DNA of 64,000 nt from the NCBI GenBank assembly GCA_964523565.1, contig CAZGAK010000002.1, positions 13,961-77,960 of the forward strand. Reading direction: 5' to 3'. This DNA is from an uncultured Syntrophaceae bacterium. GTDB taxonomy: Bacteria; Desulfobacterota; Syntrophia; Syntrophales; UBA6807. A program made the translations under genes and the position numbers. The notes under the pieces are model-generated. The model searched no databases and was not told where the DNA came from. It saw nothing but the letters and a program-made list of their open reading frames with translations. The number at the start of each line of letters is the position of its first letter. The stretch's first letter is position 1. Shown piece after piece: positions 41,861-49,194 of this stretch.

Positions 41861-42496
41861 TTAATCCTTAAGATTTCTTAAGGATGCTGACATTCCATTA
41901 TTATTCCATGCCTTTTCTATTGCATTAGCAAGAACCTCGTTCAATAACGATACCAATATGTCAGTATCCTGAAAAATGCCCCCTCCCATGCCACGTTTTT
42001 CAAAGCCTTCAATTTTTCCATTCCAAAGTTTCTTTTTATTCGTCATGTCGTAGATTTCCAGATCAATATCAACAACAGCACCCTGTCGCATCATGCTTTC
42101 AGTCCAAAATTTATTGATTTGACCTCTCACAACGAGCCTTTCATCTGATACTGCAAATAAATCTGTCGTATTAGGATATTTTTTTACACAACACCCATTT
42201 GCCTTAAATAAATTTTCCAAGGCATCCATGACATCTTGATTTATCGTTTTTTCGCTGTATATCCTTTTAAGAGGATTTTTATATCCACCATAAACAGTAC
42301 CAATGAGTGTGTTTCTTCCATTTGAATTGTATCTTTTATCTGGAAAGGCCAAGATAGCAATAGAAACATCCTTTCCTAACTCTTTATTTGTTCCAATGAG
42401 TGTATCAGCGTTATATTTCACCACGCCGACACGAGACCCACAACCTGCGAAAATGAAAGCAAATACAATAACTACGAAAACCTTATGAAATTTCAT
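41861..42496 (-). CDS. Lipoprotein (YajG-like)
   Basis: MKFHKVFVVIVFAFIFAGC lipobox; SIAILAFPDKR; LVVRGQINKFW. Confidence 0.7.
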   Translation of the reverse strand: MKFHKVFVVIVFAFIFAGCGSRVGVVKYNADTLIGTNKELGKDVSIAILAFPDKRYNSNGRNTLIGTVYGGYKNPLKRIYSEKTINQDVMDALENLFKANGCCVKKYPNTTDLFAVSDERLVVRGQINKFWTESMMRQGAVVDIDLEIYDMTNKKKLWNGKIEGFEKRGMGGGIFQDTDILVSLLNEVLANAIEKAWNNNGMSASLRNLKD

Positions 42497-42596
42497 TCTC
42501 CTCTCCTTTTTAATCTCAAATTTCCGACCTAAACTATTCTCCCTCTGTTCTCTCCCTTTCTTCGAACACATCGGTTAACTTTGCAGATTCGGATAC

Positions 42597-43646
42597 TTAC
42601 AGTATATACTTTCCCTGTCCTCCCGGAAAGGATGGAACAACATATTTAAGAAAGCTGTTCACAAGCCTTACCTTGATGCCGAAGGTGTTTAAAAACTTCT
42701 CTACAGGGGCAATGATCAAGAGGAGCGGAAGCAGATACGTCGTAATCAGAATTTTAAAGAACCCGCAGTGAAGCTTTCGGGTTGAAGCAAAATTATTTCT
42801 TATAAAAGGAGACAATAAAAGCCGCAGGATCATGAAAAAGGGAGGAACAAGAAAAGCGATGAGGACGGAAAAAATCTCAAAGGCCAGATCTAATGGCTTA
42901 TTTTTGCCGATGAGATCGCGGAGATTGTTCTGTGAATAGGTGTTTGGCCTGTCAGAGGATATTGCCTCTAAAAACCATTTGGTGGGGAGATAGGAGATAA
43001 CATATACTGATATGGCAACAATATCAGTTACAGGTCTGAAGTGGCTTACATTATTGCTATATATCGTTTCGATCTCAAGAGGTAGTATTTTGACACCCGA
43101 ATCTCCCGCCTTCAACAAAAATTCCGTTTCAGTCACATATCGATCGGTTGTCAGAAGGATGTTTTTGACTGTTGAGAGAGGGTAGAGCCGGAAACCGCAC
43201 TGCGTATCCTCTATGAATTGATTTGCACCGAGAGAAACGTAGAACCGCGCGACATGCATCGAATTATACCGCCCTCTCGGTATCTTATGTGTGTCATGCA
43301 TCCTGGAACCAACGATAACAGCTTCAGGGCAGTTATGATGCGATTCAATGAAACGGGGGATATCTGCAGGATCATGCTGACCATCGGCATCCACACTGAT
43401 TACAGCATCGTATCCCGCATCGATGGCCTTCCGGAAAAGCACCTTCAATGCATGCCCTTTCCCACGATTCCTCTCGATCAATACAACCTGGGCGCCTGCT
43501 TCGGCAGCAATATCCGCAGTATTGTCTGTTGAGCCGTCATCTGCAACAATAACATCAGAAACGTATTGTAACGATCCGTTGACCACATCCCTGATGGTTT
43601 GAGCGGCATTATATGCTGGAATGACTACACAGATTTTCGATACCAT
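42597..43646 (-). CDS. GT2 glycosyltransferase with C-terminal membrane region
   Basis: VVIPAYNA, IVADDGSTDNT, NRGKGHA, VDADGQHDP, DTQCGFRLY. Confidence 0.92.
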   Translation of the reverse strand: MVSKICVVIPAYNAAQTIRDVVNGSLQYVSDVIVADDGSTDNTADIAAEAGAQVVLIERNRGKGHALKVLFRKAIDAGYDAVISVDADGQHDPADIPRFIESHHNCPEAVIVGSRMHDTHKIPRGRYNSMHVARFYVSLGANQFIEDTQCGFRLYPLSTVKNILLTTDRYVTETEFLLKAGDSGVKILPLEIETIYSNNVSHFRPVTDIVAISVYVISYLPTKWFLEAISSDRPNTYSQNNLRDLIGKNKPLDLAFEIFSVLIAFLVPPFFMILRLLLSPFIRNNFASTRKLHCGFFKILITTYLLPLLLIIAPVEKFLNTFGIKVRLVNSFLKYVVPSFPGGQGKYIL

Positions 43647-43771
43647 CTGTTACCTCTTAGGCTATGAATTCCCTCACTACCGCCACAACAGGATTCAAAA
43701 AACCTCATTTCCATCCTGTTGTAAGTAATACGGAAATCATATACCATACCTCTTGCCATAATAAAAACCTG

Positions 43772-45163
43772 TTATTTGTCCTGATTTTCACGCACATTCC
43801 TCAACCTCTTCCCTGTCTTCATATACTCCCACAGAGGTCCCTTGATTCCGAAACGACGCAGTTTCCTTTGCAGGCTCGCATTCATATTAATATTCATGCC
43901 GGGAAATATCCAGTTTCGGTTTTCTTTTGAAAACTTTTCGATGAAAGGGAGGATTTCATTTTCTATGGAAGGCGACAGGTAAAAGACTGGTTTCAAAAAA
44001 TCCTCATGAGGATCGATACACCCTTCTTCCATGGCTACGACAGATAATCTGGTTCCCGGAAAGACCCTGATACCAATCATGCAGATAGCAGCCGTTGGGG
44101 ACATATCAATTATGGCATCTAATGTTTGATGAACACTTTCCATTGTCTCGCCCGGTCCTCCCAAAAGAAGGGAATGACAGAATGACATTCCCGACTGCCT
44201 GCATATGTCCGAGGCATTCCTGAGATCATCAACGGTGAAGTTTTTTCCAAGATTGACCAGCATGGTCTGATGAGCGGCATCACTCCCAAATTCCACTCCC
44301 GTGCAGCCTGCATCGATCATTAATTCAATAAGATTTGGGGTGATAAATCCCGGATTGGCATAACAGCTCCATTTAACAGGAAGTTCCCGGCTGATTATCT
44401 CCCTGCAGATTTCCTCAGCGTGCCGGACGGGATAATTGAACGTGTTATCGACAAAGAAGATATTGTCTGTCCCGTATTTCAGCATGTCCTCAATCTCGTC
44501 ACAGACAAGTTTCGGACTCCGCAATCTTACCTTTTTCCCTTCAATGATCGGGTAGGTGCAGTAAATGCACTTGAACGGGCAACCTCTTTTGGTCTGAATA
44601 TTGCCCATTCCTCCAAATTTTAAATAGGCCTCGTTGTCGAATTCTGATCTGTCGGGAAGTGGAAGGGTGTCCAGGTCTTCAATGATTCCGGAATGATTGT
44701 TTATAATTTTTAGTTCAGGGATATCCTGTATCTTCTTCCCCCCTTTCAGGTCGTTAACAAGCATGACAAAGGAGGATTCACCTTCACCTGCAATGCCGAA
44801 GTCTGCACCGAGATACTCCATGAGTAATTCCGGCAACAGGGCAAAAGCACTTCCCCCCGCGACGATGATCGCCTCGCTTTGCTTCCTGATTTCCTGCACA
44901 ACCTTATGATAAAAAGGAAGGTATGTGACATAATTAGGATAGCTGACGTTATCAATATTTCTTAACGACAGTCCAATAATGTCGGGTTGAAAAGATTTTA
45001 TGGCATCTGCAATCGAGGTTTCATAATCTTCGACAAAACAGAGATCCAGAATCCGGCACTTTATTTTGTTCCTCTTTAACGCCGCGGTAATGTGTGCTAA
45101 ACCAATGGGAAAAACAGGATCGGGAAGTGATTCGACATTAGGTGAAACGAGAAGAACTTTCAT
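43772..45163 (-). CDS. B12-binding radical SAM enzyme, lipid-biosynthesis-associated type
   Basis: MKVLLVSPN..PDPVFPIGLAH, IGLSLRNIDN, GGSAF, QTKRGCPFKCIYC (CxxxCxxC), FFVDNTFN; start 45163. Confidence 0.9.
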   Translation of the reverse strand: MKVLLVSPNVESLPDPVFPIGLAHITAALKRNKIKCRILDLCFVEDYETSIADAIKSFQPDIIGLSLRNIDNVSYPNYVTYLPFYHKVVQEIRKQSEAIIVAGGSAFALLPELLMEYLGADFGIAGEGESSFVMLVNDLKGGKKIQDIPELKIINNHSGIIEDLDTLPLPDRSEFDNEAYLKFGGMGNIQTKRGCPFKCIYCTYPIIEGKKVRLRSPKLVCDEIEDMLKYGTDNIFFVDNTFNYPVRHAEEICREIISRELPVKWSCYANPGFITPNLIELMIDAGCTGVEFGSDAAHQTMLVNLGKNFTVDDLRNASDICRQSGMSFCHSLLLGGPGETMESVHQTLDAIIDMSPTAAICMIGIRVFPGTRLSVVAMEEGCIDPHEDFLKPVFYLSPSIENEILPFIEKFSKENRNWIFPGMNINMNASLQRKLRRFGIKGPLWEYMKTGKRLRNVRENQDK

Positions 45164-48147: not shown

Positions 48148-48150
48148 AGG

Positions 48151-48429
48151 CTATTCTCCGTATTCTTCCTGTATAAACTGAGCAAGGGTGCTTATAGACT
48201 CGAAAGCTTTTTTGCCAACATTCTCATCTTCAATAATAACATTGAAATTTTTCTCTATGGCTACTACAAGTTCAAGGGCATCCAGGGAATCAAGACCCAG
48301 TCCTTCCCTGAAAAGAGGGGTATCATCCCCGATTTCTTCAACAGTGATATCTTCCAATTTAAGAGTATCAATGATCATTTTCTTGAGAAATTCGATCAAT
48401 GCCTCTGAATTGTTGACGATTTCTTTCAT
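48151..48429 (-). CDS. Acyl carrier protein
   Basis: PLFREGLGLDSLDALELVVAIEK-F; phosphopantetheine site DSL. Confidence 0.93.
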   Translation of the reverse strand: MKEIVNNSEALIEFLKKMIIDTLKLEDITVEEIGDDTPLFREGLGLDSLDALELVVAIEKNFNVIIEDENVGKKAFESISTLAQFIQEEYGE

Positions 48430-48453
48430 TCTCTACCTCTTGCGATTTTTATT

Positions 48454-49194
48454 TTAGCCCAAACCACCATCGACAACCAATACGTGGCCAGTAATATATT
48501 GTGACTTTTCTGAAGCCAGAAACAGGACAGCCCCGGTAATGTCTTCCGGGTCACCAAATCTACCCATTGGAATCATATTTAAAAATTCTTTCTTCGTTTT
48601 CTCATCCAGGTCTTCTGTCATAGGCGTGGAAATGATCCCCGGGCAAACAGCGTTTACCGTAATGCCGAACCGGGCCATCTCCCTGGAAAGGGATTTGGTA
48701 AAGGAGATAATTCCGCCTTTCGAAGCCGAATAATTTGTCTGGCAGGTTCTGCCTGTAAGTGCAGAAGGCGACGTGATATTTATAATCCGTCCGGACTTTC
48801 TGCCTATCATCGTTTTTATAATTGACTTTGAACAGAGATAAGTCCCTTTCAGGTTAACATCGATCACCCGATCCCAATCCTTCTCATTAAGGAACATAAG
48901 CAATTTGTCCCTGATAATTCCGGCGTTGTTGACCAGAATATCCACATATTCCCATTGCTCCAAGACACCGCTTATCATTTTCTCGACATCGGTTCTGGAC
49001 GAGACATCTGCCTTTAAAAGGAGGGATTCCGGTGCTATATTTTTTATTTCTGATTCTGTCTCCAGTGCGCTTTTATCATCAGACGAATAATTAATAGCAA
49101 CCCAGGCACCTTCTCGGGCAAAAGCGAGGGCCATCGCCTTCCCCAGGCCTTTGGTGGCGCCAGTAACAATTACCCTTTTATCCTTAAATTCCAT
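48454..49194 (-). CDS. fabG: 3-oxoacyl-ACP reductase
   Basis: VTGATKGLG, LVNNAGI, NYSASKGG, VNAVCPG, ITGHVLVVDGG. Confidence 0.93.
   Translation of the reverse strand: MEFKDKRVIVTGATKGLGKAMALAFAREGAWVAINYSSDDKSALETESEIKNIAPESLLLKADVSSRTDVEKMISGVLEQWEYVDILVNNAGIIRDKLLMFLNEKDWDRVIDVNLKGTYLCSKSIIKTMIGRKSGRIINITSPSALTGRTCQTNYSASKGGIISFTKSLSREMARFGITVNAVCPGIISTPMTEDLDEKTKKEFLNMIPMGRFGDPEDITGAVLFLASEKSQYITGHVLVVDGGLG

Follow-up and report, generated by a model that had tools for sequence, protein, structure and literature searches.

A compact eleven-gene cluster with a ketosynthase pair and a B12-radical SAM enzyme, a candidate envelope-lipid pathway in an uncultured Syntrophaceae bacterium

Gene clusters flagged as 'ladderane' are common in metagenome mining of anoxic habitats. 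One locus of this kind lies in a 64,000-nucleotide stretch of DNA (hereafter, the window) on contig C2 (CAZGAK010000002.1) of an uncultured Syntrophaceae bacterium of the phylum Desulfobacterota (assembly GCA_964523565.1), and it raises the question of which genes belong together there, what they might make and whether they have anything to do with ladderanes. A preliminary description of the window had proposed a type II fatty acid synthase/polyketide synthase (FAS/PKS)-like lipid cluster made up of a reductase (FabG), an acyl carrier protein (ACP), a thioesterase (TE), two ketosynthases (KSa and KSb), a cobalamin (B12)-dependent radical S-adenosylmethionine enzyme (rSAM) and a family 2 glycosyltransferase (GT2), followed by a lipoprotein gene. 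Our analysis supports a dedicated cluster of this type, with a ketosynthase/chain-length-factor (KS/CLF) pair and a B12-rSAM, but the unit as first drawn was mis-delimited, and its true borders are 42597-54598. We consider the chances somewhat better than even that this interval is one conserved, self-contained 11-gene cluster for a specialised envelope lipid, which probably builds a modified fatty chain, couples it to an amino-sugar head group and exports the product.

Extent and conservation of the cluster

Domains were called with Pfam and NCBIfam profiles and by reading the translations. One genome per GTDB species was scanned with a peptide pattern, which yielded 270 relatives of the rSAM; the best 80 loci were studied, and their synteny was mapped by tblastn and blastp with the window proteins. 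The minus-strand operon runs FabG-ACP-4HBT TE-KSa-KSb-B12-rSAM-GT2, with intergenic gaps of 4-76 nt among the six genes from FabG to the rSAM and 125 nt before GT2. Facing away from it are genes for an ATP-grasp ligase, a polysaccharide deacetylase, a small multi-pass membrane protein of the Sm_multidrug_ex family (SmExp) and an MMPL pump. The ATP-grasp/deacetylase and deacetylase/SmExp genes share 4-nt start/stop overlaps and are translationally coupled, and MMPL follows.

The array SmExp-deacetylase-ATP-grasp, divergent from FabG-ACP-TE-(GT2)-KSa-KSb-rSAM, is present in 34 of the 80 species-level loci, and most of the others are short, truncated contigs. In these 34 loci the order of ten of the 11 genes is conserved, GT2 being the one that moves. 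A related cluster also occurs in the Desulfobacterium sp. genome of the phenanthrene-degrading TRIP enrichment (L028). The preliminary description had suspected that 49494-54598 was part of the cluster, and this was borne out by synteny conserved across the 300-bp divergent intergenic region, with the operon found beside the FAS-like genes in metagenome-assembled genomes (MAGs) of Desulfobacterales and Syntrophobacterales. On an independently annotated 775-kb contig (L090), the Pfam labels give the order MMPL-SmExp-deacetylase-ATP-grasp, divergent from FabG-ACP-TE-KS-KS-rSAM. On the other hand, the window genes outside 42597-54598 have no counterpart adjoining the cluster in relatives. Since the lipoprotein lacks a homologue in these loci and the flanking genes are not shared, we delimit the unit at 42597-54598 (Table 1).

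Table 1. Features of the cluster and of its immediate border in the window
Feature	Positions	Strand	Basis or remark
GT2, membrane-anchored	42597-43646	-	Glycos_transf_2 1.3e-21; outermost conserved gene at this end
Cobalamin-binding radical SAM enzyme	43772-45163	-	lower-scoring TIGR04072 subfamily; open reading frame (ORF) 43772-45274
KSb, triad-less ketosynthase homologue, chain-length-factor-like	45178-46398	-	alignment to Thermus FabF 1j3n
KSa, FabF-like ketosynthase, predicted active	46422-47648	-	intact Cys-His-His against FabF 1j3n
4HBT/YbgC-class hotdog thioesterase	47725-48147	-	4HBT_2 1.2e-9; 4HBT 2.9e-9
Dedicated ACP	48151-48429	-	PP-binding 9.4e-12; DSL serine present
FabG-type 3-oxoacyl-ACP reductase	48454-49194	-	first gene of minus-strand operon
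Divergent intergenic region, presumed promoters	49195-49493	.	between fabG and ATP-grasp gene; read directly
Orphan ATP-grasp ligase	49494-50672	+	ATPgrasp_Ter 7.2e-11; ATP-grasp_3
Cytoplasmic CE4 polysaccharide-deacetylase-family enzyme with DUF3473	50669-51544	+	Polysacc_deac_1 3.3e-24; DUF3473 3.8e-34
SmExp, small multi-pass membrane protein	51541-52044	+	PF06695 7.6e-10
MMPL/HAE3-type RND lipid exporter, HpnN-like	52076-54598	+	MMPL 3.2e-33
Orphan lipoprotein	41861-42571	-	lipobox FAGC; likely start Met at 42496

All seven enzyme calls of the preliminary description were confirmed by Pfam and NCBIfam. FabG, which is syntenic in nearly all related loci, scores 300.5 bits on TIGR01830 (cut-off 297.75), matches adh_short_C2 (5.9e-65) and shows the TGxxxGxG and YxxxK motifs in translation. 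The ACP reaches 66.6 bits on NF006617, below the cut-off of 70, and its best match in the Protein Data Bank (PDB) is 9ls6_A (67.7 bits). The thioesterase, whose gene adjoins that of the ACP in related loci, matches the PDB thioesterases 6fdg and 1z54 and carries the YbgC-type catalytic Asp in 'NEVDQWGMV' as well as a DxxGxV motif. GT2 has two to three C-terminal hydrophobic helices and resembles polyprenyl- and lipid-phosphate sugar transferases, its best NCBIfam matches being AglJ, PpgS and ArnC. Most lineages keep a GT2 in the cluster, but its position varies: most have a 226-aa catalytic-domain form between TE and KSa, while the window and its closest relatives have a membrane-anchored form of about 350 aa, either after the rSAM or before FabG. 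This widespread retention makes the suggestion of a glycosylated product plausible.

In the divergent operon, the AlphaFold model of the ATP-grasp protein (pLDDT 88.3) gave generic Foldseek matches only (biotin carboxylase, PurK, carbamoyl-phosphate synthetase and L-amino-acid ligase, at a TM-score of about 0.67), so the substrate is not readable from the fold. In a sample of 401 genomes of the phylum, about 27 encode an orthologue that is at least 46% identical. The deacetylase has the motifs DLEDW, HGYSH and RAPEW, no signal peptide in its sequence, and a score of 271.0 bits on the XrtA-system model TIGR03006, just short of the cut-off of 276.2; it lies in a lipid-cluster context and not at an exosortase locus. 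SmExp is syntenic with the deacetylase in related loci and adjoins the MMPL gene in three of them (L010, L058 and L090). The MMPL pump scores 277.4 bits on the HpnN model TIGR03480 (cut-off 751.85), 185 bits on HAE3 and 172.6 bits on NF052374 (cut-off 1100).

The preliminary description had also seen in the cluster a second B12-consuming pathway near B12 salvage genes. The cobamide salvage genes of the window are riboswitch-controlled according to Rfam, while the intergenic region 49195-49493 has no Rfam family match and only weak sigma-70-like matches. Proximity to hgcAB and the salvage genes is not kept in relatives, and their closeness here looks like coincidence; given the unconserved flanks and the lack of a riboswitch at the cluster, we rejected a functional link to either.

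The ketosynthase pair, the B12-rSAM and the ladderane question

KSa scores 433.8 bits on TIGR03150, below the cut-off of 493.75, and the C-H-K-H residues are kept in 44 of 47 KSa orthologues. In KSb, by contrast, alignment to 1j3n shows the triad replaced throughout (Cys to Glu, His to Asn and His to Asp). None of 45 KSb orthologues has Cys at the nucleophile column, where most carry Glu, His or Asp. Since Cys is missing from all of these while 44 of 47 KSa orthologues retain C-H-K-H, the alignments indicate that KSb is a conserved dead partner and not a pseudogene. Chains of PDB entry 9s5h are near-top matches of both KSa and KSb, while the actinorhodin KS and CLF are distant PDB matches only. 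We take 9s5h to be the anammox amxFabF2/amxFabFmut heterodimer, based on its match to a 2026 preprint and its 91% identity to locus L103. The anammox FabF2/FabFmut pair was shown biochemically to be a KS/CLF-like heterodimer that can self-prime by decarboxylating malonyl-ACP, and in crosslinking assays it preferred C6-C8 over C16 acyl probes (bioRxiv 10.64898/2026.05.19.726425).

The rSAM was tested against the ladderane-associated family TIGR04072 (rSAM_ladder_B12), a check named in the preliminary description, and it passed with 394.5 bits (cut-off 360, E 4.9e-118, profile positions 1-440 of 443; 394.7 bits in the genome search). It contains a B12-binding domain (PF02310, 4.5e-17) and a radical SAM domain (PF04055, 1.1e-20), and its CxxxCxxC motif, CPFKCIYC, consists of residues invariant in 16 homologues. 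Since all homologues begin MKVLLVSPN, we placed the start at the ATG at 45163, 14 nt after the KSb stop, within an ORF readable from 45274. Among the 401 sampled genomes, 79 exceed the TIGR04072 cut-off, and the scores are bimodal (540-672 and 360-436 bits), with the window enzyme in the lower mode. A quick maximum-likelihood tree with SH-aLRT supports groups it with Desulfobacterales-type compact clusters in a clade of 34 rows (support 98). Its neighbours are a Syntrophobacterales compact type, a Nitrospirota type with the order rSAM-acyltransferase-FabG and a multi-rSAM type, and the upper-mode sequences branch outside all of these. Among the latter are the rSAMs of seed-like clusters (L092-L094), which share 31-35% identity with the window enzyme and group apart from it in a clade of their own (support 100). 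Overall, the rSAM clade follows the cluster type.

What reaction the rSAM might catalyse was read from its nearest relatives. Beyond TIGR04072 it scores 223 bits on BzaD, 198 on TsrM, 147.5 on PhpK and 102 on HpnJ, and the nearest characterised families (BzaD, TsrM and PhpK) are C- or P-methylases. In TsrM, Glu273 ligates the unique iron and blocks radical chemistry. In the window enzyme this residue aligns to Thr, which predicts that the fourth iron site is free, so that the enzyme is expected to use ordinary 5'-deoxyadenosyl radical chemistry and a TsrM-like non-radical methylase is unlikely. C-methylation of an unactivated carbon is thus a parsimonious guess, and we favour 'methylated' over 'cyclised', the two options of the preliminary description, only because the nearest characterised families are methylases. 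Our literature search found no paper citing TIGR04072.

Two other B12-rSAMs in the same genome were noted. A stand-alone paralogue on contig C17 (27393-28730), 36% identical to the window enzyme, sits between recG-side genes and a 1128-aa ORF of unknown function; it was considered as a BzaD and rejected, with 293 bits on TIGR04072 (below the cut-off), 174 bits on BzaD and neither lipid nor bza neighbours. The other, on contig C11 (24487-27516), is 29% identical, lies directly beside an AMP-binding ligase gene and may, with it, be a further tailoring locus.

Is the cluster, then, a ladderane pathway? Anammox Cluster I (Kuenenia kuste3603-3608 and its Brocadia orthologues) comprises amxACP, amxFabZ, amxFabF2, amxFabFmut, a phytoene-dehydrogenase (PDH)-like gene and a B12-rSAM (PMC10139942; bioRxiv 10.64898/2026.05.19.726425). 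To retrieve it, we rebuilt amxFabF2 from the printed alignment, which led to a Brocadia-type contig and from there to a 16-kb contig with the whole of Cluster I in the order ACP-FabZ-FabF2-FabFmut-PDH-like-B12-rSAM. The window shares with it the collinear order of carrier, hotdog protein, KS, dead KS and B12-rSAM, and the pairing of an active FabF homologue with a triad-less one. However, the Cluster I rSAM (L183, 10012-11472) is only 23% identical to the window enzyme over 373 residues and scores 87.8 bits on TIGR04072. Cluster I has a true FabZ dehydratase as its hotdog protein where the window has a 4HBT thioesterase, and the PDH-like gene has no counterpart here, the 14-nt gap between KSb and the rSAM holding no amine-oxidase or PDH gene. 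Conversely, the window has FabG, GT2, ATP-grasp, deacetylase and MMPL genes, all absent from Cluster I. The window ACP has no BLAST match to amxACP at E 1e-3, and KSa is 40% identical to amxFabF2. Since KSb is equally identical (29%) to amxFabF2 and amxFabFmut, and thus no closer to the dead subunit, the dead KS subunit here may have arisen independently of the anammox one. None of the 80 closest loci comes from an anammox bacterium.

Together, these comparisons show that the two clusters are collinear but not orthologous, and we rejected orthology on the rSAM scores, the TE in place of FabZ and the missing PDH-like gene. The preliminary description had stated that related B12-rSAM genes occur in anammox lipid clusters, which does not hold for Cluster I. 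Since its rSAM belongs to a different family, the 'ladderane' link is architectural and not one of orthology. The comparison covers Cluster I, and kuste2802-2805 or kuste3335-3352, which lie outside it, may hold the TIGR04072 member behind the family name. The rival view, in which the cluster makes ladderanes or their precursors by a pathway orthologous to the anammox one and the rSAM forms cyclobutane or other rings, has in its favour the family name and passed cut-off, the collinear order and the 'ladderane' label that antiSMASH gives to such Desulfobacterota clusters, as in Cariaco Basin MAGs (PMC9902471). Besides the differences above, ladderanes are reported only from anammox Planctomycetota, with none in Desulfotalea (PMC2649909), and we regard this explanation as very improbable. 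'Ladderane-type' clusters outside anammox bacteria were first noted in 2009 (PMC2649909) and are now routinely picked up by antiSMASH (PMC9902471), and our literature search found no functional study of them. The window cluster sits in an orphan class, called 'ladderane' by antiSMASH and 'lipid biosynthesis B12-binding/radical SAM' by NCBI.

A proposed pathway and its alternatives

What is observed directly is which genes are present, the state of their active sites and the conserved synteny; from these we infer the following route to an envelope lipid. KSa and KSb would act as a KS/CLF heterodimer on the private ACP, with housekeeping FabD, and perhaps FabZ and FabI, supplied in trans. FabG would reduce the beta-keto group, and the B12-rSAM would act on an unactivated carbon of the chain while it is bound to the ACP, C-methylation being the likeliest change, before the thioesterase releases the free acid. 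At the inner (cytoplasmic) membrane face, GT2 would add an N-acetyl-hexosamine to a lipid phosphate, the deacetylase would free the amine and the ATP-grasp enzyme would ligate the released acid to it as an amide. The small membrane protein and the MMPL pump would then carry the product to the outer membrane.

Several points weigh against this route. The reaction of the rSAM is guessed from neighbouring families only, and other B12-rSAMs catalyse ring contraction, cyclisation or dehydration. The best structural relatives of the ATP-grasp protein are bicarbonate-activating enzymes, and it could instead carboxylate an amine or, like BtrJ and other ATP-grasp enzymes known to charge carrier proteins, attach a starter acid to the ACP. 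GT2 scores far below the cut-offs of all named families, and no GT2 gene lies beside the cluster in L090. The cluster has neither a dehydratase nor an enoyl reductase, so that chain length and oxidation state are not fixed, whereas Syntrophobacterales-type clusters carry a FabA-like dehydratase between TE and GT2.

The sugar-handling genes allow another explanation, in which a lipid-linked, N-modified amino-sugar donor, made in an ArnC/ArnD- or PpgS-like manner, decorates a different envelope polymer (lipopolysaccharide, lipid A or exopolysaccharide), and the end product is not a free glycolipid. ArnC and PpgS transfer sugars onto polyprenyl phosphate, and these two, with AglJ, are the best named matches of GT2. 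The deacetylase falls only 5 bits short of its XrtA-system cut-off and weakly matches ArnD, and the small four-helix membrane protein could be a flippase. However, no GT-C/ArnT-type final transferase lies in or beside the cluster at any mapped locus, all named GT2 and deacetylase matches except TIGR03006 are far below their cut-offs, and an MMPL/HpnN-like pump, of a kind that moves whole lipids, is kept in the cluster. We therefore consider a sugar donor unlikely.

The carrier and ketosynthase genes raise a further alternative, a small exported metabolite and not a membrane lipid. The KS/CLF pair would extend an unusual starter by just one condensation or a few to give a small acid, possibly cyclic or branched, in the way that AmcF-AmcG act in cispentacin formation, with the ATP-grasp enzyme loading the starter on the ACP, in the manner of BtrJ, or coupling the small acid to an amino sugar. 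The ACP matches AmcB (50.6 bits) and both ketosynthases match AmcF (234 and 108 bits), the C6-C8 preference of the anammox KS/CLF pair fits short chains, and the cluster lacks a dehydratase, an enoyl reductase and an acyltransferase. On the other hand, all Amc scores are below cut-offs, and an adenylating loader, an aminotransferase and an AmcE-type cyclase are all missing. The presence of an MMPL pump and of a GT2 anchored in the membrane speaks for a lipid, as do the PlsC-like and LpxL-like acyltransferases and LolA-like carriers that related clusters add. A small acid is in our view an outside chance.

For an envelope lipid, some functions would be supplied from elsewhere in the genome. The preliminary description had found no dehydratase, acyltransferase or AMP-ligase in the window. 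This holds, and genome-wide searches extend it to the whole of contig C2, which has no FabZ/FabA, FabD-type acyltransferase or AMP-binding domain; housekeeping fabD, fabG and fabF are on contig C36. A second lipid locus on contig C22 (16345-23898; L095) encodes, by Pfam calls, a FabA-like dehydratase, a FabD-like acyltransferase, a tetratricopeptide-repeat (TPR) protein, a LolA-like protein, a B12-rSAM, LpxL-like and PlsC-like proteins and a methyltransferase. At 33% identity, the rSAM of this locus is closer to that of anammox Cluster I than the window enzyme is.

In a split system, the C22 locus would provide the dehydratase, malonyl-acyltransferase, lipid acyltransferases and periplasmic carrier that the window cluster lacks. 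These Pfam calls and the FabA-like dehydratase of Syntrophobacterales-type clusters agree with such a division, and C22 homologues are fused with the compact cluster in two independent MAGs, at L038 (methyltransferase at 54% identity, dehydratase at 55% and TPR) and at L060 (PlsC at 61%, second rSAM at 50%, LpxL, acyltransferase and methyltransferase). L060, a 26.5-kb contig (C54 of genome G074), holds a super-cluster of about 25 kb with all gene families of the window cluster and of C22, and includes two extra B12-rSAMs. However, orthologues of the C22 rSAM and PlsC occur in genomes without the ATP-grasp gene or the compact cluster (G169, G173, G037 and G316 among them), and in G231, the closest relative in the sample, the C22-type locus includes an MMPL pump of its own. 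Co-occurrence is thus loose, and C22 may be an independent lipid system. A phylogenetic profile did not separate these possibilities, the second-rSAM and PlsC families being too widespread and paralogous to discriminate. We regard a split system as possible but doubtful.

Another string on contig C13 (25188-31092; L097), with a short-chain dehydrogenase/reductase, an ACP, a nitroreductase, a KS, a BioF-like aminotransferase and a BioD-like gene, looks like a private pimeloyl/biotin-type pathway. We rejected it as a partner locus, the biotin-type KS/BioF/BioD set being followed by signalling genes.

In its most specific form, the envelope-lipid proposal would have sulfate reducers and syntrophs make a new class of lipid for the outer membrane without oxygen, in a route in which the KS/CLF pair makes a short or medium chain on a private ACP, the rSAM installs one or more methyl branches or another carbon-carbon change at an unactivated carbon, and the ATP-grasp enzyme forms an amide with a deacetylated hexosamine-phosphate lipid; we give this detailed version only a slim chance. 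If it were true, the rSAM family could be the missing source of the mid-chain methyl-branched acyl biomarkers of anaerobes, and the 'ladderane' label on hundreds of MAG clusters would be a misnomer. Should the rSAM prove to be a chain C-methylase, it would join the few radical SAM enzymes that act on fatty-acyl lipids and not on isoprenoid ones. A 2026 review names only ladderanes and the product jawsamycin (Jaw5) as radical SAM fatty-acyl cases (PMC13459092).

Neighbouring sequence and comparison with known systems

The lipoprotein gene that the preliminary description had included in the unit is incidental. It has no homologue in any of the 80 related loci, even those about 90% identical, and its family of 19 members has no Pfam domain and occurs in unrelated gene contexts, so we rejected it as a cluster member. 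Its relatives adjoin a D-Ala-D-Ala ligase/VanZ/alanine racemase set, an IS91 transposase and DUF4468. Beyond it, an IS200/RAYT-like Y1 transposase gene (40667-41362, minus strand) lies within 40638-41655, with inverted repeats at 40638-40672 against 41404-41423 and 41614-41648. A 210-bp tandem duplication (41218-41634; two copies, 95% identical) spans the transposase 5' end and the region upstream. Downstream of the cluster region, Rfam domain matches (RF02005, 78.8 bits; RF00029, 50.2 bits) indicate a group II intron at 60387-61148.

No characterised biosynthetic gene cluster was matched, in the family libraries or in the literature that we searched, but the window cluster resembles several known systems in part. 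Aryl-polyene lipid (APEL) clusters, apeA-R of E. coli CFT073 and Xenorhabdus doucetiae, include ApeJ, which puts N-acetyl-hexosamine on lipid phosphate (bioRxiv 10.1101/2020.12.19.423268). The window shares with them a type II KS/CLF pair, an ACP, a ketoreductase and a hotdog thioesterase, together with a GT2 for a hexosamine-phosphate-lipid head group (acylated subsequently in APEL) and RND/MMPL export. However, the APEL core consists of a KS (apeO/R), a CLF (apeC), two ACPs, a ketoreductase, two dehydratases (apeI/P) and the transporter apeM, while the window has one ACP and no dehydratase. The aryl starter genes (the AMP-ligase ApeH and a chorismate-derived 4-hydroxybenzoate) and the methyltransferase ApeB are absent among the 11 genes of the cluster, as are a PlsC-type acyltransferase and LolA/LolB-like carriers. 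Conversely, aryl-polyene clusters lack the B12-rSAM, ATP-grasp and deacetylase genes. With the second ACP, dehydratases, AMP-ligase and methyltransferase all absent, we rejected aryl-polyene membership. Aromatic type II PKS membership was rejected as well, since those systems have Gln at the CLF active site where KSb has Glu, and Pfam and NCBIfam detect no cyclase or aromatase domain in the cluster.

A parallel in logic is the hopanoid side-chain module, with hpnI (GT2), hpnK (deacetylase), hpnJ (B12-rSAM) and hpnN (RND exporter), in which a lipid is glycosylated with N-acetyl-hexosamine, deacetylated to expose the amine, remodelled by the B12-rSAM and exported by HpnN. The window has the same logical set of GT2, deacetylase, B12-rSAM and HpnN-like pump, but its deacetylase is of the CE4/DUF3473 type and not YdjC-like, and its lipid would come from a KS/CLF system instead of squalene-hopene cyclase. 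With the rSAM at 101.9 bits on HpnJ (cut-off 577.6) and the pump similarly far below the HpnN cut-off, membership in this module was rejected. So was membership in the Arn-type lipid-linked amino-sugar pathway, as the ArnC and ArnD models give only 43.2 and 19.6 bits (cut-offs 529 and 382) and no GT-C/ArnT-type gene is found in the cluster or its mapped relatives.

The window fits best among the other TIGR04072 neighbourhoods, which occur in MAGs of Desulfobacterota and Nitrospirota and likewise set the rSAM among private FAS-II-like genes (ACP, KS and ketoreductase) with GT2 and MMPL. Seed-like clusters (L091-L094) are larger and aryl-polyene-like, with the order rSAM-GT2-LpxL-like-ACP and extra rSAMs, whereas the compact form in the window has a single rSAM plus the ATP-grasp/deacetylase pair. 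It is one of the smallest complete versions, with 11 genes and one rSAM in 12 kb, and being so compact, with borders sharply defined by synteny, it lends itself to heterologous expression or in vitro reconstitution. Since the window rSAM differs from the Cluster I rSAM of current structural work, conclusions should not be carried over from one system to the other. Altogether, the comparison adds to a known orphan class a compact, cleanly bounded member that is directly distinguished from anammox Cluster I.

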